NCBI RefSeq assembly: GCF_006345805.1
Contig: NW_021835989.1
Location: 124,001-188,000, forward strand
Source: Octopus sinensis
Lineage: Eukaryota
DNA: 64,000 bases
Direction: 5' to 3'
The notes under the pieces were generated by a model. It was not told the DNA's origin, made no database searches, and saw only the letters and a program-made list of their open reading frames with translations. How positions within the stretch are numbered: the first letter of the stretch is position 1; the number at the start of each line of letters is the position of its first letter. Below, in pieces: positions 2,280-59,480 of this stretch. The translations under genes were made by a program, and so were the position numbers.

Positions 2280-4580
2280 TATCTAGTTAATTTAAATTGA
2301 TAAAAATATGACGAATCTGTTTCGATACATAAAATCTTTTTATCATTCGCACATAAACCAATTTATTTACCCTTTTTAATGATTTATAAAATCGTTCATT
2401 TTCAGGTATTTTCACATCCTAAACTCACTAAATTTGATAATAAATACAGAAAATATATTAAAACATTGCAGCAAATCAACACTGTTGGCAAGAACTACTA
2501 AATCTGAATTGTTTGATAAATCAAAAGCTGGCACGTGATTATGATATTTATTGTGTAAAAAATCTAAAATATTAATGTATATTTATTTGAAGATAACCAT
2601 GTAATAATCCTACTTTTTTGCATTTGTTATTCATCCATTGAGTATTATTAAATTCGTTAAAAGTTTGTTCATTCAATTTCAAAATGTTCCAAGAAAATAT
2701 TTTATTTTTAGTTATTTCTGAATTAGCAGCTATGCAAGTCCCATCCCAAGACCACACGATATTCTCGATTGGACAGTCCTCAATATAAAAAATAAAATAA
2801 TCTCAAATAAATACCAAAAACGTAGAACATTTTTGATACGTTGTTTTTGAATTTTCTCGTTCAAAAATATGTATACTTCCACAGCTGTAATAAACGACCA
2901 ATTTTGAATTATCGGCATTAAATGCAGACTTCATTACTGTACTTGACACCTCTTCTATTGAGCATTGTTTCGTCAATGTAATCGATTCGATAACAACTAG
3001 CTGGCCGTTTTTGGACCCAACACAAATTTGAGTGCAATCGTGACTTATTGTTATTGATGAAATTGGTATCTTTATGAAATAGTAATTATGACTTACATGT
3101 AATTTAATTATCTTAATTAATCTATTCGTCACTAAATCCCACTTTATTAATCTTCCAGACTCGTCTCCTGTTATAATAAAGTGATGGAGTCTAGAAGCAC
3201 ACAAATCCAATATTTTGACTGAATGACTCTAATGAAATTCACAATATATTCTAACTTCAAAAATCGTCGAGATTTGCATGTTTTTTAATAATAAAATTAT
3301 ATGATTTGAGGTCATCAAATACATCATGTGTGGTCCATCGGAGGATAAGTTTATCACATGTCCTTTATCCTGTTCGATCTAAAAATTGAAATGTGATATA
3401 TACTTTAAATGTGTTAATACAATGTTTTGTACCGACCTTCCAAATTTTCACGAACCCTTCATCGCAAGCTGTGGCGATTTTATTTTCAGTAATTACAAGC
3501 ATTGAAGAAATTGTCCCCGAATGGGCTTTATCAATACGATATAACATATTTTGTGATTCTTAAATTTCAAAAATAGTAGTTTATACTAAAACTCCAACAT
3601 TCAAGTGTGCCATTAGAGAGTCCAAGAACAATATCCCCGCTGTTGGTAAAAATACCACAAGTTGTGTGGCATGTAGGATCATATTTCTACAAAAATGGTT
3701 TAGAGATGAACTTTATTAATTGGAATTTTGTGCAATTCATTATTTTCAATTACAAAAAGCCATAAGTGCTGTTTGCTCCATGAAACAAACAAGTTTTCTG
3801 TTTTAGGTGAATAAATCAAATTATATTGCCTAAAGCACGATCCCTGAAGTTTATTATTAAATATAACGAGATTTATTTCAGCTATTCTTCTATCAGCCCT
3901 CCAGTTAAGGACAGCAACAAATACAGAAATATCTTGAAAGATCCCAACAAGGAACTTTCCATTCGACTACATTTGCTAGATATATTTTACAAGATCTGAC
4001 GAAAAACACAGTGAAGTCAGTTTTTTGACAGAATCGTCGAGTTTGATAATTTTTTTGGTTTGGAAAGTATACGAATCCCAAATTCTGATTATGATCTGAA
4101 TTATATTTTCAAAAGTAAAAAACATTTAAATTGCTTGTAGTTTCTGTTGTTGCATAAATTACTTTATTTGGATGAAAACAGATTCTAAATATTACTAAAT
4201 CAAATAAACATGTTTATATTGGATTCATGTTGATCATATATTCGTTGAGTGTGTTCATCTGGATCAAAAAATACTACAAATCTTCCAACATTATATGTCA
4301 ATTCTCGCGAATCATTAAAAAACATTTTTGATTTTTTATTGTCAAATAAATAACTAAAATTGAATCTATTATTTATTAAAAAACATCCATTCAATTTCTA
4401 ATTTGACGTCATCTTTTTTACTTTCATCTACAACATAGAAATTGTATTTATTTTTATTATTTTTCACAATAACTTTTCCAAATCTATTTTTTGAAGTCAA
4501 ATTTTGCTGATGATTTTTATTATTGTGATATTTCTTACTAAAAGTAAATTATTCATTAGGAAAATAACCAATTTAGACAT
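2280..4580 (-). CDS. EML/EMAP-like WD40 (HELP/TAPE) microtubule-associated protein
   Basis: KLEIEW|I-FNF...ELTYNVGRFVVFFDPDEHTQRIYDQH matches the HELP motif (KLKLEWVYGY...YFVASVVVLYN...QRHYLGH). WD repeats include AHSGTISSML..KIWK and GDESGRLIKWD. Many short introns; ends approximate. Confidence 0.65.
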
Positions 4581-28927: not shown

Positions 28928-31392
28928 TCTTAATAATAAATGGTTGGTTGGTCTGTCTTTCTGTCTGTGGTCCCCTGTCTGTGCACACCCACATTCAAAT
29001 TGTTACAACCAGATCAAATTGTCAAAACCTTCCCTTTTGTAGTTATTCGTCTGAGGCCAATAAAAGGTTTTTATCCTCTAATAACCGTCTGTCAAAAAAA
29101 TTTAATAAGAAAGAATATCTCGATGATGAGGTCCCCAAAACCTTCAAGGCAATTTTCTGCGTTTTTGTTAAAATGAACAACAGAAAGTCTTCGACTCACC
29201 TGATGTGGTCCCCCAAAACGTTCAGCAACAAGTAAAATTAAAAAAATATTTTCCGGCGTTTTTGTTATAATGAACAACAAGAAAGTCCTCGACTCACATG
29301 ATGTGGTCCCCTTCAAACCTTCAAGCCAAAAAATTAAACAAATTATTTTCTGCGTTTTTGTTAAAATGACCACAAGAAAGTCCCTCGACTCACATGATTG
29401 TGTCCCTCAAAAACCTTCAAGCCAAAAAATTAAAAAAATTATTTTCTGCGTTTTTGTTAATGAACAACAAAAAGTCCACTCGACTCACATGAGGATTGTC
29501 CCTCAAAACCTTCAAGCCAAAAAATTAGAAAAAATTATTTTCTGCGTTTTTGTTAAAATGAACAACAAAAAGTCCTCGACTCACATGAAAAATGTTGGTC
29601 CCTCAAAACCTTCAAGCCAAAAATAAAAAAATTATTTTCTGCGTTTGTGTTAATGAAGCAACAAGAAAGTCCTCGACTCACATGATGTGTCCCCCAAAAC
29701 TTCAAGCCCAAAATTCAAAAAAAATTTTCTGCGTTTTTGTTAAATGAACGACAAGAAAGTCCTCGACTCACAGATGAGGTCCTCCACACCTTCAAGCCTC
29801 GGAGGCCATTAATGTACTTAGCTAATCTTTTTTTCGATGACATAATTCTTTTTTGTTAAATTTTCTAAACAAATAAATAAAACGCTCACTTGTTCTCGAC
29901 ATGGAATAGACTGTGCAATTATCAGATTTGAAACCACTAAAAAAAAGGAAAAAGCAAATTAATTAGAGATTTACATAATTGATTCTTTTTAACTGCCGAA
30001 CTACAAATTCGATATGCGCTGTTAGATTTTCTACAAGATAGAGGCAATAAATTTAATTAGTCATGTAAATCAATTTGCCTATATTTAATCTCCTTGATTT
30101 AACATGGCTTTAATTTTTTTCCTTATAATACTACAAAGAAAAGCTGATTATCGTTCTTACCGAAACAGACAAGTTCGATTATTCTACAGTTTCATTCCTT
30201 TAACCATAGAGAATTAAATAATGGCTTTATGGATAATACACTTTACAATAATTTTCACTAAATAAATTTACGTAAAAATTTAAGAATAAATGTACTGATT
30301 CGCGTTACCAAATCTAAGAATGTCCTATAAGAGAGATCTGAACTGTTAACAAACAAGAGAATATGAACCATATAACAAAAAAAAGAGAACGAGGAAGATG
30401 TGCTTTAAATGTGAGGAACTTATACACAGCTGAACAAGTCGGCTGCTGTTAGACTCAACAACTACGGTTAATAGAATTAATGCTTCTAGAATTGTTGGGA
30501 TGAATGTACGATGGGCTCATAAAGGCGCATTCAAGCATTGACCGAACATATAGAGATATCAATAAAAATGTACGACCATTTGTTTGGGGAGCATTATTTT
30601 TATTGGCAGGTGATTTTAATACAACGCTGCAATTATTCAAAAGGGACTCCTGCGGATGAATTGAATGCCTCGCCGCAATCGTCATATTTGTGGACACACT
30701 GAAACAGGTAAGCTTGATGTAAATTACATGCACATTTACAGGCCGTTAATATCATATTCCCACATCCTTCTAGATTTTGGAAATGGGGGCAATCACTTTC
30801 AGAAATGCACGACCAGAAAAATTAGGCTACGAAGAATTATGTATTTCGAGAAACAGCAGAAGAATATTGAATTCCGTCTATTCCCAACTATCTGAACACT
30901 ACGTGAATTTCGCTGGCTGCGTGAACGAGCTATATTAGCCTCCACTTTGATGAGTACTTAATATAAATTTAGATTTTTTAATCGAATCCCTGGCAGAGAA
31001 GAACAGATATAAATCGTGGTTCGACTTTATATGGACCTGAATTGGCCTGCGATATTTTAAGAGACTACAATTTCCGCTGAGATAAGTTTTGCTATGACAA
31101 TAAATAGCCCAAGGTGACAGTCTTTTAAGGTATTAGGCTTATTTTTAGAGAGAGTGCTTTTCACATGGCCAGCTGTATTGGGGTGCTCAATGGTAAGGTA
31201 GAAGAGAAATTCTTCATATTTTGCCACGGAGGAGTACTGCAAACATCTTTATCCACATTAAATAAGGTTATATCAAAAGTCACATTATATATCTACATAA
31301 ATTTATAGTTATTTAGGGAACCTGCGAGCGTACGCGAGCAGGGCCTCCGCATGAGCTAGCCTTCGCAGTGAGCGAAGCGAATGCTGAGCTAG
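28928..31392 (+). mobile_element. Helitron (non-autonomous, decayed PIF1-like helicase)
   Basis: 5' A|TCTTAATAATAAA with (GTCT)-rich tract; 3' hairpin plus CTAG|T. Helicase remnants WDECTMAHK, LLAGDF, TPADELNA, FAMTIN and FSHGQLY. Confidence 0.85.
29118..29798 (+). repeat. Tandem ~96-bp minisatellite, ~7 copies
   Basis: GACTCAC recurs at 29193, 29291, 29387, 29482, 29578, 29675 and 29765. Confidence 0.95.
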
Positions 31393-34399: not shown

Positions 34400-35881
34400 T
34401 TTATACGTCGAGATTTATACATTATACAAAGTAAACATTCAACTCTTTTCACTGAAAAAGAAGTATTGGAATCCCTACACCAAACAAAAGTAACATATTC
34501 ACATGGTCCCGACAGCATTCCTATAATTCTCCTGAAAAACATAGGCAATGAGGGAATCAGTGTTCTCACAAAAATCTTCAATTGGTCGATTAACTACAAC
34601 TCAATCCCAACGATTTGGAAATTGGCGAACATCCGCCCAATTTTGAAGGGTGGAAAACCAAAACAAGACCCGGCCTCCTTCAGGCCAATTTCCCTATTAT
34701 GTTCCATGTCAAAAACTCTGGAAAAACTCATCCTCACAAAAATCATTAACAGCATTCCCAACAAGGCTTGCTAACATGGATTCAAAAAAGATTGTTCCAC
34801 TGCAAGCTTCCTTAGCTCCTTGACTAACTTTATCCGTTCTGGCATTTCGTGCAAGCCAAGACATCAGAAAACTGTACTTTGTTCGCTGGATATCCACAAA
34901 GCCTTCGACGCTGTGCCTAGAAAAAACCTAGCATGGAAAATCTACCAATCAAACATCCCTGAAGACCTCAAGCTCTGGTTTACTAACTTCCTCAGCGGTC
35001 GAAGAGGAAGAGTATGCTTTGGAAACATTCGTTTCATTTCCCGTCTATTCCCAAATGGTGTACCCCAGGGCTCACCATTATCACCTTTCCTATTCACTTT
35101 GTTTACGGCCGATATTCCGACGCCTAATGGCGATGACGATCTGCTTCTGGCCTATGCAGATGACATTGTATTGGCATCACGGGACCAGAACATCCAAACA
35201 GCAAAAGGAATTACAACAAAACCTGGATCACCTAGTTGAGTGGTTTAACGTAAACCGGATGTCGATCAACACAGAAAAATCTCTGTCACAACTCTCTACT
35301 CCTCAGCCAAAAGACTATCGAAAACTTCAATCGAAGTTGTTGTGGAGGGAAGAGTATTACCTTTCAGCAAATGGCAAAAGATATTGCGATTAACTTATGG
35401 CACACACATGAACTTCTCTAAACATGTCACAAATGTGCTGAACAAATGTGAAAAGAAAATCAACCTCCTGAAATGCCTAACTGGTTTATGGAAAATGGGA
35501 AATCACCCTATACTTAAAACACTCTACTCACAGTATATCGAACCATGTATCTCATATGTTTGTGCCTCATGGGGGCCACTGATTTCGAATACAAACATCC
35601 GTAAAATCTCCGCAACCCAGAAAAGAGCTTTCACACTTACCGAAAGGTGGTATACAGGTGAAGCTATCAAACCACCAATCTCTTTCGGAACTCTCATTGA
35701 GAAGAATACAAAAGGGCATCAATGGTATAAAGAAACGATCCGCCCTCAACGATCTTGTGTGGGCTCAAGAGAGCAGCACAGAGCGAAACTGAGAGCAATG
35801 ATCAAATTCGTCGGGATCACCTAGTTAGTTTTTTCTTTTGGTTAACGGTGGTCTTTGGAATAAATTTTGATTTGATTTGAC
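34400..35881 (+). mobile_element. LINE reverse transcriptase (5'-truncated) with (TTTGA)n tail
   Basis: GPDSIP, SFRPISLL, LDIHKAFD, GVPQGSPLSP and YADD motifs, with one stop and frameshifts. AATAAA followed by TTTGA x3 at ~35859-35880. Confidence 0.9.
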
Positions 35882-46858: not shown

Positions 46859-49656
46859 ATGCCCTACAGTAATGGAATGGAAAACCTAATAACAGTCATC
46901 GACAAAATACAAAATGCCTTTACATGTTCTTCTCTGCCCTGCAATCTCGATCTCCCTCAAATCGTCGTCGTCGGCTGCCAAAGTGCAGGCAAAAGCAGCG
47001 TATTAGAAAATTTTGTCGGAAGGTTTTGTACATAAAATCATATTTTTAGAGATTTTCTGCCACGGGGGACTGGAATTGTGACCCGAAGACCTCTGGTTCT
47101 TCAGCTGATCAACTCCGATGAAGGTTATACATGTCATAATGCACAGAATATGGCGAATTTTTGCACAACTCAAGCAAATACTTCAACTTTAACGATATTC
47201 GAACTGAAATTGAAGCAGAAACAACGAGATCTTGTGGAACCAACAAAGATGTTTCCGACGTTCCAATAAACCTAAAAATATTTTCCCCAACGGTAAAAAA
47301 ATCAAAAATAAACATTTTAGTGATTGATTTAACTTTGGTCGACCTTCCAGGACTCACAAAAATTGCTGTGGCGGGACAAACCACGAGGTCATTGGGGTAA
47401 TAAGGAAAATGGTCCTCAAATTTATCGAAAACCCAAACAGTCTCATTTTGGCTGTCACCCCTGCCACGACTGACTTGGCCAACTCTGACGCCTTGCAATC
47501 GCAAAGGAAGTGGACCCTCTCGGACCCGCACTATTGGGGTCATTACTAAGCTTGATATGATGGACACGGAAACCAATGCACGGGATATTTTGGAAAATAA
47601 ACTCCACCTTTGAAAAGAGGTTGGATATGTGATTTATTTTAGGATATGTCGGGGTGGTTAATCGTAGTCAGCAAGATATCGAACAAAATATTCCGATTGC
47701 TGTCGCCCACAAAAAAGAACGTCACTTTTTTAACAACCATCCTTCATATAAGTACTAATACTACATGATACTATTATTAGACATATGGCTGATCGAATGG
47801 GAACAGAATTTTTACAAAAAACGTTAAATCAACAACTTTTACAACACATTTTTACTGTCCTTCCTTCGCTGCGACAAAAAATATCTGAAAACCTGAATGT
47901 TTTAGAATCGCAAGTAAAGGAAATCGAATCAAGGGGAGGTTCAATGTCCCACAAGTTATTGATATGGTTATTTTTGCGTATTTCTTTATTAATAGCGCAA
48001 TCGAGGAGTTTTCTACTATTTTGTCCGACAATATAATGTCTACGCATACGACTGCGTTGGTTAATGCTCAAAGATTGTCGATTGGAGCTACAATAAATCG
48101 ATGCTTTTTTAAAACCCTTCCAACAAATTACAAAAAGTTATTATTATATTTAACAGATATTTGATGAAAATAGTAATCAAATTCTCCAAAATATACGTCT
48201 AGCTATTCAAAACGTGCATGGCGTCAAGTTAGTGATTTAATGTCTATACAGAACTGGACTTCATACACCAGATTTGGCATTTGAAATGATTGTCAAAATG
48301 GATTTTGAAAAAAGCGCCATTCCTATTAAATCCTGCTTGGAGGAAGTCTACAATTTTACTAATCTCGCAATCGAGGAAGCTCACAAAACGGTTTGTAAAA
48401 AATTATTCCATTCAGTTTGAGGAATTTCCATATTTGCAGTCGGCAGTGGCACGGATTGTGTTAAATGCACTGAATGTACCACCAGAGACGCTGAGTCAAA
48501 TTGAGCTCAATATAGATTTTCATTTGAATTATATCAACACAAACCATCCTGATTTTATCGGAGTTCCCACGTATTTTTATTTTTTTTTCAATTTCAGGCA
48601 GAAACATAAACGAGAAGAACGTACAGGACCGGTTTGTTTAATTACAATAAATTAGCTTACTCAAAAAAGGGGTACATTACAATAAGCAATTTGTTGACGA
48701 CAAAAATAAAGGACACGTTTATTATGCCGCATTGGTCACCGGAAACCTTGTGTTATACAAAGATGAAGATGTAAATTTTATATTTCATTTTGATTAGGAA
48801 AAGACAAAAACTGTCGATTTCTGTCACTAAACTTCGTTATCAAATTCCTGAAGATTTTAGCACACTTTCACAATTTGTCTTGTCGGATATGACATCAAGT
48901 TCATAGGGAGTTATATTATTTTAGGGGATGTATATTTAGGGACTTGAAAATCCTCCATTTCCAGTGTTCCATTTTAGTGAGTGTAACGATTGGTTGGTTG
49001 CCCTCATCGAAATTGGACTGAGGCCGCTCGATCCAGCAAATCAAGTCGAATTATATGTTTGATATTTCTAGAATTCGTATGATTTAGAAAGAGGTGTAAA
49101 TGACGTTAAGAGTGTGTTGAGTCATATATATATTTTATGAAAAATTATTCTCGACATTATTCCAAAAATATTTTTCATTGTTTTCTTAGCAAAGTCGAAA
49201 TATTTTTAATTCCTAGATTGTGAAGTATTGCAAAAAAGGTTTAATTGCTGAATTATATTCCCAATGGCCGATTGTATATTAAATAATTATATTATTAATA
49301 GGAAGAACTGCTAAACAATCTCCAGAAAAACTCGCTCATGATCAAGAAATCGTCAGACTCTACCAGGCCACCAAGAAGCCGCTGAATATATTAAAATGTT
49401 CACAACGAAGTCACACAAAATCAAATTAAATTTCCGACTTCTCGGTCACTGTCAACTTTTTGTGAATTTCTAGACACTCAAATAATTTAGTTTCTTCTGG
49501 CAATCACAAAATGCGTCTAAAGACACATTATTCACTTTAGATCAACAGGAAAATAATATTCAGTTTTAATTTTTTGGTAATTTTTTAGAAATCCACTTCC
49601 ACTGCCTCCGTAAGATTATTTTGTTTTAATTAGATAGTCGCCCCAATAGAAAATGA
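46859..49656 (+). CDS. Classical dynamin (GTPase, stalk, PH, GED)
   Basis: [24 protein letters not shown]|[32 protein letters not shown] and a PH-like KKGYITI block. Many 20-29 nt introns. The 3' end is approximate. Confidence 0.93.
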
Positions 49657-50324
49657 ATTTTTCATTAAAAATTAATCATACTAACTCTAACTAATCATTT
49701 TTAATTGGTAGACATTTTCAAATCACACCTTGAATTTTTGATTAACTTTTTTGTGTTTTTTAAAAGAAACGCAGTCTTTTTTCGAATAGCTCCCTCAATA
49801 AAAATGACATCCAAACAATGATATAATAATAATATAAATTTGACACAATTAGCAAACTATGCAACAAATCTCGAACTTTTTCCCTCTACAACTTTAATAA
49901 TCTCCAAGAACAATAAATCAATAACAATTGGTATTTACAAAAATCGACGAGTCGGATATTATAACCATATTTCAGATGCTGTCAAGCTGGTAAATTTGCA
50001 ACTATTCGCAGAATTAACTTTGTAGCATTTACCTAACACAGTGACGAGAGTAGATTAAAGGTCTATATTTAATTAGATCATATTCCGGAAATGACATTTA
50101 TACAGGGTCTACATGTTTCCCACTGAGAAGATTGGGCTACTTATTACACATTATAGAATTCTGAAAATACCGCATGCATCCAAAATTTTTTTTAAAAGCG
50201 GTTTTTATCATTGCGTTTTATTATTAAACACTGATTAACTATATACAACCTGCTGTTTTTAATCTACCTTGAAGCCCCTTTTGCGATAGCTGAAAAGTTC
50301 ACTGAATTAATTCACGCTGATGAC

Positions 50325-52173
50325 TAGGGCGATTTTTTTTAACCTGAAAAATAAAAATTTTAACCTAAAAACTTTAACTTTATTAACCTAAAAACTAAAA
50401 ATTAACCCAAAAATTTAACTTTATAAATAAACAAAAAAACACTAAAACTGTTTGTTGCACATACAAATTACATAATTTTCTAAATTTTCTTGTAGAAAAT
50501 TTCGGTTGGATCTTAGAAAACTCTTTATTAGAGAGAAAGTTCTTTCAACCGAGCACGAGGTCGGCTGACAATTCAGAAGTAATGCATACTCGGCAGGAGA
50601 TATTTGTGAATTAGTCATTTTAATTATATTCGAAATATCGTTTGTTTTAATCCTTTAATTATGTATTCTTTGATAAATTTGTTGTCATTCCCAAATTCCA
50701 ACGATTCTAAACAATAATATGCTTGTTCAATTGTGAAGCGCGTACTTTCAAATTTCGTAATAATATCTGCAATAGCGACATTTACTCGAAAACCTGGAAT
50801 GTTTGAATAGCTTCGGATAAGGTCACATAGACTGCTCACTAATACATGGTTTCGAAGACTTTCTTTGGCTGTTCGAACTAGATATCCATCATCCGCGAAT
50901 GATTCGAAAATATTTTGTACTCCAATCAGATTTTCTGAATAGTAAGTAGCGGCCTTAAGCCAACTCCCCCATCTTGTCAAATGCACACGAGGTGGAATGG
51001 CGATGTTTCTGTTTTTAAATATTCGTTTTCTTGTATTGTTCTTGTTAATTGCTGCTTGTACAGTAGCAATCATCAAATCAATTTCCGGATAGGAAGCTTT
51101 TATTTTCTCACAACAATTGTGTAATAGATGAACAGTACATGTGACATGGAATAACTTGGGGTACAGATTGTTAAGTATTTTGCCAGCTAAAACTTAAACA
51201 TGAAATTTTACCTGATTTCATATAATTTGCGGCATCCGAAATTAACAAAAGGAAATTTTCCCTTTGAACCAAATTATTCCGAAGTACATCGTCGACTATT
51301 TGAGCAATGATGTGCTTGTTAGGAGCAGATTCAACCGGCATAAACGATATCAGATATGTTGTTTCAGGAGAATTTAACGATCCAATCATCACAGCAACGT
51401 ATCTGTGGCCACGAATTTGTGTTTCATCCGCAATAGCAAAAACCTTTTGATCGCTACAAAATAAAGTAAATTTTTATACACAATTTTTTGTTGAATTATC
51501 AATTTTTGCTCAATTATGATTTGATTGACACAGCTTCTAGCCTTCGATGGTGAGGGTACTCGCACAGAACCTCCGTAAAACAATTCTCTAAGCCATGGCA
51601 TAGATAGTTTGTTTAGCGGAATATCGGATTTAATGAATGCTCTGGTTACTTGTAGAGCCCAATCATCATTTTTGGCATATTGGTCAATATTTGTTTGGTG
51701 TGATGTGGTCAGATAATCTACAAAAAATAATTTTTATTTCGAATAAACTCAATGAATTTTGATGTTTCTGTGAGGATCGATGAGAATTTACAAAATGCCT
51801 TTTTTCGCATTTAATATTACACAAACAGAGACGACAATATAATACACCATCCTCAAGAATCATAAATTCTTGCGGATAATCCTTAACAATGGCTTTAGCT
51901 TTGATTTGATACGATTTTGCTATCTTAGGCATGTCAACCAAAAATTTTTGTTACAAAATGTATTATTAATTGTTAATTTAAAAAATTAATAAATTATATC
52001 AAAAATTATAAGGTTAAAATAATTTTAACCTTATAATTTTAAATTTTAACTTTTTAACCTAATAATAATGTTTAATATGCATTTATTTATAATAAAATAT
52101 AGTTAAAAAATCATTTAAATTATTATTTATTTACTATTATTAAATTTTAACTTTTTTAACTTAGTTCGCCCTA
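50325..52173 (-). mobile_element. hAT DNA transposon, apparently complete (CGGBP-related transposase)
   Basis: TIR TAGGGCGA...TCGCCCTA; 8-bp TSD CTGATGAC (50317-50324 and 52174-52181); TTAACC subterminal repeats. Confidence 0.95.
50442..51932 (-). CDS. hAT transposase, ~460 aa, 5 exons
   Basis: Zinc finger CxxC..H..H, ADET, SDAANYM, CTVH, TRWGSW and SCSVERTFS. Introns at 51718-51748, 51454-51479, 51187-51211 and 50767-50793. One homopolymer indel near 50655. Confidence 0.88.
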
Positions 52174-52181
52174 CTGATGAC

Positions 52182-53185
52182 AGTGCCGCATGTCTGAGTT
52201 TCAGAAATCATATGAAACACATAGAAGTAACAATCTACTAGGATTAAAAAAATTAATAAAATTTGCGAATTTTGCTTGTTAGAATTTTAGAAAAAAATTG
52301 AAATCGTCACGTCCATACACAAATCCAAAGCAACGAATATGGCCATAATGATTCTTTTCAAGCATAAAAGTAATTGCCGAAGCTTTTCGGACAAATCTAC
52401 CACATGACAGCATCTTCTAGGTTGTCCATCGCAGATTCGCTGAAAAAGCTCGCTCGTCTCCCCCGGTCGTTTGTTTTCGAAAAATTCTTCTACCATTGTC
52501 AGTGAGAAGTTGATTCGCTACCTTTTCAACGATGGCCCCACACCGGCATTTGTGGAGTCCGGCAAATCTCCAGTCCAAGTCTGGTGCTGATGCCGATGCG
52601 GACAGTATCGTCGTCAAGGTGGGTTCCGACACTATCAACGGGGAGTGCGTTGATCCAAGCTCCACTCGATTCGCATCTTCCAGTCACTAGACAGGCACGT
52701 CTGTGTTGGTTTGATTGGATCAGAAGCCTCTTATATTTTTCCTCGCAGATGTTCCTGTCTTTCTGCTCAGGCTCATCCTCCTCGAATGCGCCATGTCTGT
52801 GATTTCAGATGATTCAGTTTGGAGTTGGAGAATCATCCTGATCAGCAGTCGGCTGGAGTCCAAAGAGGATAGATATGCGGGGCAAGCTAGATCTTTCGGA
52901 GAAGGGATTCCCAGTCCGCCCAGGTTAACGGGTAGGGTCGCTTGGTCTCACCCTTGGTCGTCGAATTTCACATGCGTTCAATGGTGGTCCGAAAGAGACA
53001 ATCGATATTGTCGAGCTGTTGCATTTCCAGGTAGCAGGGTGCGCCCCGAAGAACGTAATTCAGTTTCTGTGCTGACAAGGCGTTTTTTAGCAGAAATAGG
53101 AAGGTATGTGCGTCTAGCGTCTCAAGACGTATGAATGTTGTTTTTAGTTGTTGTTCTTTTGTTATTAGTGTTACTAAATCCAGCA
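52182..53185 (-). mobile_element. CRE-type retrotransposon 3' part with internal deletion of most of the RLE
   Basis: KLNYVLR..P, GGLGI, SGAWINALP..LG, HKCRCG, then a jump to the C-terminal LFQRI motif. Confidence 0.85.
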
Positions 53186-53212: not shown

Positions 53213-55400
53213 TATGGCTTTAAATAATTTACACGAGTTTAGTTTGGTCTTCGAAAGATTGTCGATCCTCTTTTTTAGTTCCCCAAAGAGTGCCTTCAAT
53301 ACTTCGCTTTTCAATACATCGCTTCTTCTATCTTCTAACACTCCAAGGTATCTGTAACCTTCCATCCCATCAAGCAATTTAGCTTCAGACCCAAGGTTTG
53401 CCAGATTAGTTGCAGACTTTTCGACATTTTTTTCCAGTCCGACAGCTTCGAAGAAATTATTTACCTCATTCATCATATTCATCGTTGTATCTTCTTTTGT
53501 GAAAATATTTTTAGATCATCCATAAACAGTAAGTGATTTGTTGTATATGTAATACAACCCTGATCTTGGTTATCAATCATCACTTTTGGGTACTTAGCAT
53601 TCAGAATTCTACTAAGAGGATCCATCACCAGGGAAAAGATTTGAGGTGACAAGGAATCACCCTGGAGTATGCCTCTTTCCAATTTAACCTCTCCGATTTC
53701 ATTATGATTCAGAATTAGCTTTATTCGCCATTTCGTTACAAGGTTCTTCACAAAATTCACAATCCAGCTAGGGAGTCCGGAGTTTTCAAGCACCTGGAAC
53801 AGAAAGTCGTGATCTACCGAATCGAACGCTTTCTTTACGTCAATCCAGGTAGAAACAAATTATTTCCGTTTTGCTTGTGAATGCACCGGTTAAGAATTGC
53901 TTGTTCCTTTGCCCCTTGACACATTCGCCGAGTTCCCAATTGATTATCCGCAATCAGATTATATGCCTCAATATAATCTCCCAACTTCCTGTTAACACAT
54001 TTCGTTGCAAGCTTATATAGGTTAGACATACAAGTAATTGGTCTCAAATCTTTGGGTCCTTGACAAATATCTTTGGGATGAGATATGTGATTCCAGTGTA
54101 GAACCACTCATCCGGTATGTATTCACCACGGATTATCTTGACTAGTTCTTCACACAAGTGATCATGGATTAAGGTCATTCTTTTTAGAAAGAAATTATAC
54201 ACCCCATCACAACAGCTAGCTCTCCAGTTTGGGAGTTGTTTAATTGTTTCAAGGATGCTTTCTTTACTAAACTCTGCAAATGTATCCTCTGCCCATGTCA
54301 CTCTCTTGTTAATATGTAACACATTATCGCTCTTCTCATTTCTACTCCATATTTTTTTCCAATATGATAAACATTCACTGTTATTAAACATGAACTCTGC
54401 ACTCTTTCTCTCATCATTTAAACTGCGATAGAAACAACGCCGATTCAATTCAAAGAACCAATTCTGTTTCCGAAATTCTTTTCTTGCATCATGGAGTCGA
54501 AGTTTCTTCTCAACAATCTTTATTTCGTCTCCAATGCAAGCAGAAATTCTTCCAAGTTCTCCTTTCTTTGCCTTTCGATATCCATATTCACTCAGCGTAT
54601 CCCTCGTTGCATTATCAAACTTCAAGCTTCCTTTTTGATCAATAAGTGTATTAGTCTGTTCGTATTGTTCTTTAAATTTAATTAGTTTTGCTTCCATTAT
54701 TCCTTTCCAGTTTGTTATTCTTAGGAGAGTATTTTGTAAGAGCTTGGTATGTCAGCTGTTCAGCATAAACGATATCGTGATATCATTCAAATTGACAGGA
54801 GGGTTGGTCTTTTATATTCATTAATCACTGCATTTATTCCAGACAATATTTCTTTTTTAAGTAGTTGATATGGGACTTTTTTTGGTCGGCTTTCGTTTTT
54901 TTTCGAGAGATAGATTTAACTTGCTCTATTTGGTAAGAAAATTCAATTGAGCAATCTCTAAAATTAGAGATTTCAGTCTTGTGATTCTTTTCTTGATCCA
55001 ATGGAGAGTTAGACTTTGTTCCCGTCATCTTAGCCAGACTCTTCACATTCGCCACAGATTTGGACGTGAGGAACTTTCGTTAAAAGCCTGAGTAATCATG
55101 GGCCATCCACCACGTGGTATTCTTTTGAATCTGCTCGAGAAACGTTGACCACTTCATTCATTGCGCCATTGATCATGTCCACCTGCGTTACTTGATCGAT
55201 GATAGCCCGTAGAGTTAACAGATTAGCAGGACAATCCGTTTGCGACAACCGAATTTGGAGGGGAATATCAGATTCTTGCGTTCCAAGCTGCCCACGGACC
55301 ACACGATCTACGTTATTATTGGTTTCTCTTTCATTTCTTCCGTAGATAGGTCCATTGGAAATGTTTCATTAGACCCAGTAGAAACAAACATGCACGTAAA
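53213..55400 (-). mobile_element. R4/Dong/NeSL-like non-LTR retrotransposon, 5' part (RT), 3'-truncated
   Basis: RPITCMSNLYK, NQLG..GAKEQ, KAFDSVDH, GILQGDSLSP, NHLLFMDDLK and YRYLGV, with frameshifts. Confidence 0.88.
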
Positions 55401-58894: not shown

Positions 58895-59480
58895 TTGCGA
58901 TAGCTGAAAGTTCACTCACTGAATTAATTCACGCTGATGACAGTGCCGCATGTCTGAGTTTTCAGAAATCATATGAAACACATGGAAGTAATAATCTACT
59001 AGGATTAAAAAATTAATAAAATTTTGCGACTTTTGCTTGTTCGAATTTTAGAAAAAAATTGAAATCGTCACGTTCATACACAAATCCAAAGCAACGAATA
59101 TGGTCATAATGATTCTTTTCAGGCATAAAAGTAATTGCCGAAGCTTTTCGGACAAATCTAACACACAAACATCATCTTCTAGGGTGTCCATCGCCGATTC
59201 GCTGAAAAGCTCGCTCATCTCCCTCCGGTCGTTTGTTTTCAAAAAATTCTCCTACCAATGTCAGTGAGAAGTTGATTCGCTGCCTTTTCGACGATTCCAG
59301 AAAGTTCAATTGCGAGGGGAAAATTTAATAGTGTATTTCGTCTTCTATGATCCTTTGGCATTGGCGGAGCCCGGGTTTCCGACTGTCTTGTGTAGAATCG
59401 TCACAGAAAACGAGTTGATTCAAGTGGAATCTCAAACCAGGAACTTGCCCTTCCTAAAAGAAAGGTAGTCCTCTGTCGGA
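58895..59480 (-). mobile_element. CRE-type 3' end, paralog of 50280-50324 plus 52182-52530, lacking the hAT
   Basis: Near-identical sequence with a single CTGATGAC. Degenerate RLE RKGKFLV*DST..NPGSAN. Confidence 0.85.

Follow-up and report, generated by a model that had tools for sequence, protein, structure and literature searches.

Here we describe a DNA transposon of the hAT superfamily that lies in a 64,000-nucleotide (nt) stretch of the Octopus sinensis assembly GCF_006345805.1 (contig NW_021835989.1, forward strand, positions 124,001 to 188,000). We refer to this whole stretch as the window and to its contig as C12460. The transposase gene of the element carries four mini-introns. We consider it probable that this is a recently mobile 1.85-kb hAT, likely of a dicyemid parasite, whose four spliced introns of 25-31 nt were likely gained in the parasite lineage by an originally intronless element. 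The origin of new spliceosomal introns is an open question, and a clear case calls for close relatives as well as an ancestor without introns. The genome described here has versions of one transposase with no intron, with three and with four. If the introns were gained in the parasite, the element would be a natural record of how ultra-short introns originate. Dicyemids are one of two animal groups reported to splice introns shorter than 30 nt, and intron gain and the limits of ultra-short splicing would become testable.

Four mini-introns in the transposase gene

The hAT copy spans 50325-52173 of the window, with the transposase gene on the minus strand (ATG at 51932, stop codon ending at 50442). 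Its features are listed below; TSD is target site duplication, TIR is terminal inverted repeat, X2, X3 and X5 are sequencing runs, and B, C and D are sister families described in the next section.

50317..50324, no strand: TSD CTGATGAC, left copy; a single copy is present at the empty paralogous site
50325..50332, plus: 8-bp TIR, at the 3' end of the transposase gene
50335..50424, no strand: subterminal TTAAC(C/T) array, predicted transposase binding sites by analogy with hATs
50442..50766, minus: exon 5, with catalytic E427 and the stop codon
50653..50655, minus: one-base loss in an A run, private to the window copy; assembly error or private mutation
50767..50793, minus: intron 4, 27 nt, phase 1, stop-free; skipped in X2 and X3; same position in B and D
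50794..51186, minus: exon 4, with CxxH and the TRWGSW motif
51187..51211, minus: intron 3, 25 nt, phase 1; skipped in X2, X3 and X5 (as 5+20 letters); same position in B, C and D
51212..51453, minus: exon 3, with catalytic D150 and D214
51454..51479, minus: intron 2, 26 nt, phase 2; skipped in X2, and an X3 loose end fits the next exon; also in B, C and D
51480..51717, minus: exon 2
51718..51748, minus: intron 1, 31 nt, phase 1; skipped in X2 and X5, retained in other contigs; also in B, C and D
51749..51932, minus: exon 1, with the ATG at 51932 and a C2H2-type zinc finger (C33, C36, H51, H57)
52002..52066, no strand: 5' subterminal motifs, among them a perfect inverted repeat of 19 bp (52002-52040)
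52166..52173, minus: 8-bp TIR, 5' end
52174..52181, no strand: TSD CTGATGAC, right copy
58934..58941, no strand: empty paralogous site, one target 8-mer

An earlier note, made from the letters of the window, had described a young hAT with four host-sized introns, and we confirm this observation. All four minus-strand introns (51748-51718, 51479-51454, 51211-51187 and 50793-50767; 31, 26, 25 and 27 nt) are bounded by GT..AG. In the protein they fall at amino acid (aa) 61 (phase 1), 140 (phase 2), 221 (phase 1) and 352 (phase 1).

Splicing was assessed with contigs of four public runs (X2, X3, X5 and X7) aligned to window positions 47550-52000, and the support comes from two studies. Intron 1 is passed over by a 31-nt skip with CT..AC ends in contigs of X2 and X5. 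Intron 2 is skipped in X2, while a loose end in X3 fits the next exon; intron 3 is skipped in X2, X3 and X5; and intron 4 is skipped at 29.3/29.3 of the depth in X2 and 19/22.3 in X3. One X2 contig skips introns 1 and 2 together, and one X3 contig skips introns 3 and 4. The X7 contigs show no intron skipping in this interval. Thus each intron is skipped in public contigs, and the claim that all four are real and host-sized stands. Intronless DNA copies were considered as a source of the skipped contigs, and none occur among 30 loci taken from the best 40 of 273 candidates (0/15, 0/16, 0/18 and 0/19 for introns 1 to 4). Frameshifts in place of introns are ruled out, as the gaps are bounded by GT..AG, common to copies and sister families, and skipped in contigs.

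Intron 1 is also retained in contigs of all four runs, and X3 lists no intron-1-spliced form. Most of the listed retaining contigs differ from the window copy, and in the one from X7 the donor is mutated (C>T at 51748). The protein would be truncated to 82, 170 or 234 aa if intron 1, 2 or 3 were retained, so that the transposase needs mini-intron splicing; frame arithmetic bears out the earlier note in this respect. Retention of intron 4 would give 469 aa, and the note had proposed an isoform of this kind. This proposal did not hold up. In addition to the depth of the skipped contigs, the nine residues of intron 4 form an insertion relative to each of the six other aligned rows spanning this position, and the corresponding intron of family D is 28 nt long and frame-breaking. 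Intron-4 retention as the main form is thereby ruled out.

Sister families and the origin of the introns

Relatives of the element, whose own family we call A, were surveyed by a protein search of the assembly, 40 fetched regions and a purpose-made spliced aligner. The assembly contains a radiation of hATs that end in TAGGGC(A/G)A and are mostly 1.77-1.9 kb long. Family B (~54% identical; introns of 27, 24, 25 and 24 nt) and family D (53-54% identical; 25, 26, 28 and 28 nt) have introns in the same four codons and phases as A. Family C (~41% identical) has the first three introns only (23-24, 23 and 23 nt). Intron sequences are visibly dissimilar between families despite the same positions. 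Because the introns are common to sister families, they are much older than the window copy, which the earlier note had missed. As a separate observation, intron 1 of family C (L069-L071, L084, L092, L100 and L101) is 24 nt and stop-free in frame in 6/7 copies, and the seventh copy has 23 nt. Left unspliced, this intron could be translated through, as could intron 4 of A and B.

Families E/J and F/H are intronless. Among them, L079 (457 aa) and L080 (455 aa) are single frames in intact 1.82-1.85-kb elements with TSDs. The joint occurrence of intronless and intron-bearing families on contigs C12464, C9300 and C1794 places them in one genome. The clade that includes family G is intronless apart from a 31-nt insert specific to G. 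This insert lies at aa 144 in phase 0, breaks the frame, and is bounded by GT..AG and by a short AAG-GTT-like repeat. Family G is represented by two copies (L086 and L090, on contigs C12760 and C8311), both with other breaks. Judged by its sequence, the insert is a candidate intron and a probable separate gain, perhaps a younger one.

Outside the assembly, 26 of 80 metagenome loci were examined, which were the longest matches and included many redundant or partial ones. All 26 are without introns at the four sites. A single frame runs the full length in four of them, and in three a longer intron lies elsewhere (near aa 11 in L110, with 71 nt; near aa 179 in L115 and L124, as a long insert). 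The mollusc chromosomes carry an old relic family (L209-L220, on scaffolds including C11, C9, C5, C18, C2 and C20) with 69-89% DNA identity to the query relic. Two private inserts aside, no intron was found at the four sites in the 12 relic loci examined. The relics fall in the same clade as the intron-bearing families, and their placement as sister is weak (90/76) or not settled. A past transfer of this hAT lineage between host and parasite is possible from these sequences.

Trees were built from hand-picked family representatives and are unrooted. The clade of A, B and D has support of 100/100 in all three careful trees. Family C is sister to it with 96/87 in the 52-row tree, 97/91 in the 39-row tree and 83/82 in the 25-row tree (mixture model), and the clade of A-D, the mollusc relics and four outside proteins (the P0020/P0008/P0021/P0024 group) has 98/98, 99/98 and 95/96, respectively. 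A single clade, and thus a single invasion, for all parasite-side families is ruled out (p-AU 0.003), which implies several invasions. Several weak intron calls were dropped as likely artefacts or private inserts: 'introns' of 20-21 nt and 146 nt at other positions in decayed metagenome copies, a 172-nt call at the start of L036, weak calls in the decayed L089 and L091, a 24-nt expansion of a C/A run in L214, and a 38-41-nt insert in the mollusc relic L218.

The comparison of homologs for intron gain that the earlier note had suggested therefore found intronless relatives, a three-intron family and three four-intron families, and the intron-bearing clade nests among intronless relatives. We suggest that the simplest reading, and a likely one, is that the parasite lineage acquired the introns stepwise. 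The first three would predate the split between C and families A, B and D, and the fourth would postdate it; family G would probably have gained its candidate intron separately.

A probable second genome in the assembly

The 2.7-Gb assembly carries mollusc hemocyanin on large scaffolds. The family of the element lies on small contigs, with 0/70 DNA matches and 1/150 and 2/107 protein matches on scaffolds C1-C30, among the best candidates listed. The window itself is gene-dense and uses the standard genetic code. Cyclophilin genes in its contig and in three other small contigs have introns of 22-29 nt. For comparison, the median dicyemid intron is 27 bp in an excerpt of PMC6543705, and among 51 animals such introns occur only in myxobolids and Dicyema according to an excerpt of PMC13644364. 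Two types of 18S gene are present in the assembly, one of 1667 nt on contig C1618 and one of ~2600 nt on the chromosomes. Of the dicyemid 18S primers, taken from the supplement of PMC6778094, R2 matches the C1618 gene exactly and F3 matches it with 2 mismatches, and the one long copy tested is not matched.

Thus, small contigs such as C1618, C12460, C1794 and C2292 appear to represent much of another genome, one with mini-introns and an 18S gene of dicyemid type. The element and its contig are likely from a dicyemid parasite that was co-assembled with the mollusc, a likely origin that the earlier note did not recognise. As a practical warning, parasite transposons are part of what is annotated as repeats and genes in this mollusc assembly.

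Copies and recent mobility

At the DNA level, the best 40 of 273 candidates in the assembly yielded 70 matches to the element. Full-length copies with their own TSDs are the window copy, L002, L003, L005 and L006/L007 (one site, with a nested insert). L012 is internally deleted and has a TSD, and L004 and the window copy are segmental duplicates. L002 and L003 are identical over all 1854 bases and have different TSDs. Other pairs differ by 1.1-2.5%, the duplicate pair L006/L007 excepted, and the window copy differs by 1.3-1.7% from intact copies. As the intact L002 and L003 are identical at different sites, the family has moved recently, and its youth agrees with the earlier note.

After splicing, a stop-free 460-aa frame is present in L002, L003, L005 and L006, as had been predicted for the element with its introns removed and one base restored. 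In L004 and L007 the frame is broken elsewhere. As it stands in the assembly, the window copy encodes 399 aa and lacks catalytic E427. The claim of autonomy would therefore apply to family members, which are intact between intact ends, and not to the window copy as it is written. The base missing at ~50653-50655 is present in 9/9 other aligned copies that cover the site, so that the frameshift is private to the window copy, and contigs of X2 and X3 carry the base too, among them the X3 contig that skips introns 3 and 4. Other length differences between the window copy and L002 are also losses in homopolymer runs. Compared with its duplicate, the window cyclophilin region lacks seven short stretches, five of them in homopolymers, and one difference is in the reverse direction. 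Because this nearby region shows the same bias towards base loss, a consensus error is more likely than a mutation, as far as the sequences tell.

Some copies carry further inserts. In L006 (891-1501), and also in L007, the 3' subterminal region of the hAT is interrupted by a non-coding element of ~0.6 kb; TA flanks it, and its inverted ends are long and GC-rich. Pieces of it are also found in L035 and L091. In L008, a family copy, exon 1 is interrupted at 3042-4318 by an insert of ~1.3 kb that has inverted ends and a short target duplication, with no further match among the loci retrieved in the analysis. Nested local duplications ~6.8 kb and 16 kb apart involve window positions 52174-52533 and 58934-59295 and the 190-199 kb region of contig C12460. 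L004, the second copy of the element in the C12460 duplication, is truncated at its 3' end.

Ends and insertion site

The perfect TIR TAGGGCGA is 8 bp long (50325-50332 and 52166-52173) and is flanked by the perfect 8-bp TSD CTGATGAC (50317-50324 and 52174-52181). An empty paralogous site at window 58934 has a single CTGATGAC 8-mer. Here, a 364-bp duplicate of the right flank runs through the single 8-mer into a match to the last bases of the left flank, so that the empty site documents both insertion and duplication. TTAAC(C/T) motifs number 6 in the 117-bp 3' end and 7 in the 241-bp 5' end (13 in 358 bp), with 0 in the 1491-bp coding part and a window mean of 1.6 per kb. These coordinates and counts substantiate the TIRs, TSD and subterminal arrays of the earlier note. 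The perfect 19-bp inverted repeat of subterminal motifs (52002-52040) lies ~70 bp upstream of the ATG and is a possible site of self-regulation. The target consensus, derived from 35 related elements whose 8-bp TSDs are perfect (L098 and L099 possibly represent the same site), is nTnATnAn. We take its T2 and A7 to resemble the preference of Ac.

The transposase and its place among hATs

The presumed catalytic residues are near-invariant in 52 relatives (D150 52/52, D214 51/52, E427 49/49), as are C238 (51/51) and H241 (52/52) of CxxH, W294 (50/51), and the finger residues C33, C36, H51 and H57. We assume the catalytic roles of D150, D214 and E427 by analogy with Hermes. The statement that the catalytic D, D and E and CxxH are intact is thus sound for the family, with the reservation that E427 lies outside the 399-aa frame of the window copy as written. 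The Pfam search gave no zf-BED match for the transposase. It gave a weak DUF659 match in 17/17 aligned members, below cut-off where scores are shown, and a weak Dimer_Tnp_hAT match in 6/17 relatives (best E 0.0014) that does not reach the curated cut-off. A profile search found 209 relatives, many of 455-465 aa, which matches the spliced length. Given these 209 relatives, the failure to find longer homologs with the exon 4-5 frame (0/1053 candidates) is a failure of sensitivity. The Atlas points to hAT clusters, with a DUF659/hAT cluster at 0.97 for an intronless relative. In PDB sequence searches nothing was significant, and there were weak matches to U1-C-type fingers (E 0.05 or worse). For a structure model of the intronless relative L079 (pLDDT 69), Hermes takes the top 11 Foldseek ranks (best E 9e-6), with TM-scores of only 0.19-0.25.

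Features that place the element among hATs are the 8-bp TSD, the DDE, CxxH and W residues, the Hermes-like fold of the L079 model and the subterminal repeats. The perfect TIR is 11 bp in family B and 8 bp here, the latter below the 10-25 bp given in an excerpt of PMC3942097. The length of 1849-1854 bp, and of mostly 1.77-1.9 kb across the clade, is outside the hAT range of 2.5-5 kb, which is descriptive and not diagnostic.

We propose that the parasite spliceosome would remove the four introns to give a 460-aa DDE transposase. Like Hermes, this protein would recognise the subterminal motifs, cleave at the TIRs and integrate the element at nTnATnAn targets. The introns would most likely be tolerated, constitutively spliced passengers, and the dependence on mini-intron splicing would be a side effect and not evolved control.

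Alternative explanations

Several points weigh against a dicyemid hAT with introns gained in the parasite. No mechanism of gain is visible, as intron sequences have diverged between families. The grouping of C with A, B and D is unstarred under the mixture model and open in a quick 114-row tree. With an unrooted tree and a count of one change, gain and loss are not distinguishable, and the nearest outside proteins (the P0020 group) were compared as protein only. The 18S contig C1618 is not physically linked to C12460. The fold match to Hermes has low TM-scores and concerns a relative, not the window protein. The public runs carry no RNA label; X5 is presumably DNA, perhaps from the sample that gave the window itself, and the dynamin gene, a control for splicing, has no contig cover. 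The RNA origin of the skipped contigs is therefore something that we infer. Finally, the retention of intron 1 in several contigs leaves room for regulation.

Some of these points feed alternatives. The element and its contig could belong to the mollusc itself or to another, non-dicyemid cobiont. The chromosomes are molluscan, C12460 is without a link to the dicyemid-type 18S gene, and ciliates also parasitise cephalopod kidneys (PMC4988119). Against this stand the dense genes, the standard code and the 22-29-nt introns, of a kind confined to myxobolids and Dicyema among 51 animals (excerpt of PMC13644364), together with the primer matches to C1618, and we regard this origin as very improbable. 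Alternatively, the introns could have arrived with the element from an earlier host, shrunk to parasite size and been lost in the intronless relatives. The unrooted trees, the introns of outside relatives L110, L115 and L124, and the P0020 proteins, compared as protein only, leave it some credit. We nevertheless think it unlikely. None of those outside introns lies at the four sites, and family G is the only member of its clade with a candidate intron, which is at a site of its own. Moreover, the mollusc relics belong to the same clade (98/98, 99/98, 95/96) and lack the introns, so that several exact losses would be needed.

A further alternative concerns function: the introns might be kept as a switch like that of the P element, with retention of intron 1 yielding an 82-aa repressor of transposition that has only the zinc finger. 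It can draw on the P-element precedent (excerpt of PMC7776569), the 82-aa product, the intron-1-keeping contigs in X2, X3, X5 and X7 (X3 without a listed spliced form) and the conservation of all four positions across families that are ~54% identical. Against this, levels cannot be read from contigs, the listed contigs with intron 1 mostly differ from the window copy, and that of X7 has the mutated donor expected of a dead copy. The genomic contigs that carry the intron-bearing families also carry intronless ones whose frames are intact and whose TSDs are perfect. In addition, because a DNA transposon moves without an RNA intermediate, its introns persist by default. A selected switch is accordingly an outside chance in our judgement. 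Less remote, and still a minority view, is that the family is as described and the window copy is truly frameshifted, non-autonomous and moved in trans by intact copies. The 399-aa frame without E427 and the 1.3-1.7% distance from intact copies fit this. Its segmental duplicate L004 has the base, and the homopolymer losses elsewhere in the copy and in nearby host sequence follow the same bias. We thus retain a recently mobile hAT, likely dicyemid, with introns gained in the parasite.

If any intron is a switch, intron 1 would be the candidate by analogy with P-element IVS3. A barrier to escape is plausible from the rarity of such introns. Among the matches listed, intronless families have no young copies on mollusc chromosomes either, so the absence of the intron-bearing element there is uninformative about its introns. 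The special compactness claimed in the earlier note is not borne out, as the small size is a trait of the whole clade and intronless relatives of 1.82-1.85 kb share it. Since intronless hATs of this size, some of them intact, are on the same contigs, neither compactness nor success depends on introns. As a genetic tool the clade has the merit of a small transposase (460 aa), and the intronless members would be equally suitable.

A broader scenario is speculative, and we would bet against it. Here, the dicyemid genome is an active source of ultra-short introns, separately invading intronless hATs are fitted stepwise with introns of 23-31 nt, one lineage is perhaps exchanged with the mollusc, poor splicing elsewhere traps the elements, and intron 1 acts as a P-like switch. 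If an active intron source were real, the transposon families would form a datable series of intron birth in a genome known for reduction.

Other features of the window

The cyclophilin region at 45.4-46.9 kb has a duplicate (L034) ~108 kb away on C12460 (61-63 kb) with 95-98% identity. RVT_1 fragments, probably of LINEs, are at 34775-35239 (plus) and 53479-53859 (minus). Host genes recognised by Pfam encode MBT/SLED, dynamin, Sec23/24, WD40, rhodopsin-type GPCR and AAA domains, in stretches at 41.3-44.0, 47.0-49.4, 61.3-63.4, 2.8-3.2, 6.7-7.4 and 26.6-26.9 kb. By eye, the dynamin gene has apparent mini-introns and frameshifts. A 96-bp tandem array of ~6.8 copies at 29152-29798 overlaps open frames of 104-140 aa.

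Comparison with known systems

The element resembles Hermes (PDB codes: 8edg, 4d1q, 8sjd and 2bw3) in its 8-bp TSD, short TIRs, subterminal repeats, N-terminal C2H2 finger and D-D-E with CxxH, and the top 11 Foldseek ranks for the model of the clade member L079 are Hermes. It differs in that the window protein has no sequence-level match in the PDB. In size it departs from the superfamily as described in part of PMC3942097 (2.5-5 kb, 10-25-bp TIRs, >600 aa), with 1.85 kb and 460 aa. The CGGBP/hAT-19 proteins likewise have a short N-terminal C2H2 finger on a hAT-type protein, and Pfam detects nothing in CGGBP1 (excerpts of PMC8097297). CGGBPs are mostly truncated, domesticated genes, whereas the window element is full-length and mobile. 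Intron retention would give a truncated DNA-binding product, as it does for P element IVS3. The P element belongs to another superfamily, and regulated retention is proven there (excerpt of PMC7776569), while here there are retained contigs only.

The introns resemble dicyemid mini-introns in size (median 27 bp, PMC6543705) and in reduced GT/AG signals (PMC13644364), as far as the excerpts of these papers go. Those described there are shrunken introns of host genes, whereas the positions here appear new and lie in a transposon gene. The D. japonicum genome has 49% repeats, with LINE-1 among them, and in its main text neither 'transpos' nor 'hAT' occurs at the start of a word (PMC6736024), though the supplements may list such elements. 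A full-text literature search, assessed by titles and abstract openings and without Repbase, Dfam or subscription journals, found no dicyemid DNA transposon and no gain of a mini-intron in a transposase; the supplements of PMC6543705 and PMC13644364 are outside that scope and may list such elements. The closest compact proteins are DUF659-type hAT transposases of ~460 aa (P0003-P0122, L109-L130), with the same length and motifs and ~38-43% identity in the best matches. Where their DNA was examined, they are intronless or have a longer intron elsewhere, with no mini-introns at these sites.

Maize Ac is another intron-bearing hAT. So is BuT2, whose hAT transposase gene has five exons and hence four introns (excerpt of PMC3942097), so that a four-intron hAT transposase gene is not new in itself. 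By the printed exon coordinates in that excerpt, the predicted introns of BuT2 are ~58-154 nt, compared with 25-31 nt here, and BuT2 moved horizontally among Drosophila despite its introns. Unlike BuT2, the window element has close relatives that are intronless, so the origin of its introns can be traced. Thus, the main value of this element is as a traceable case of intron gain.

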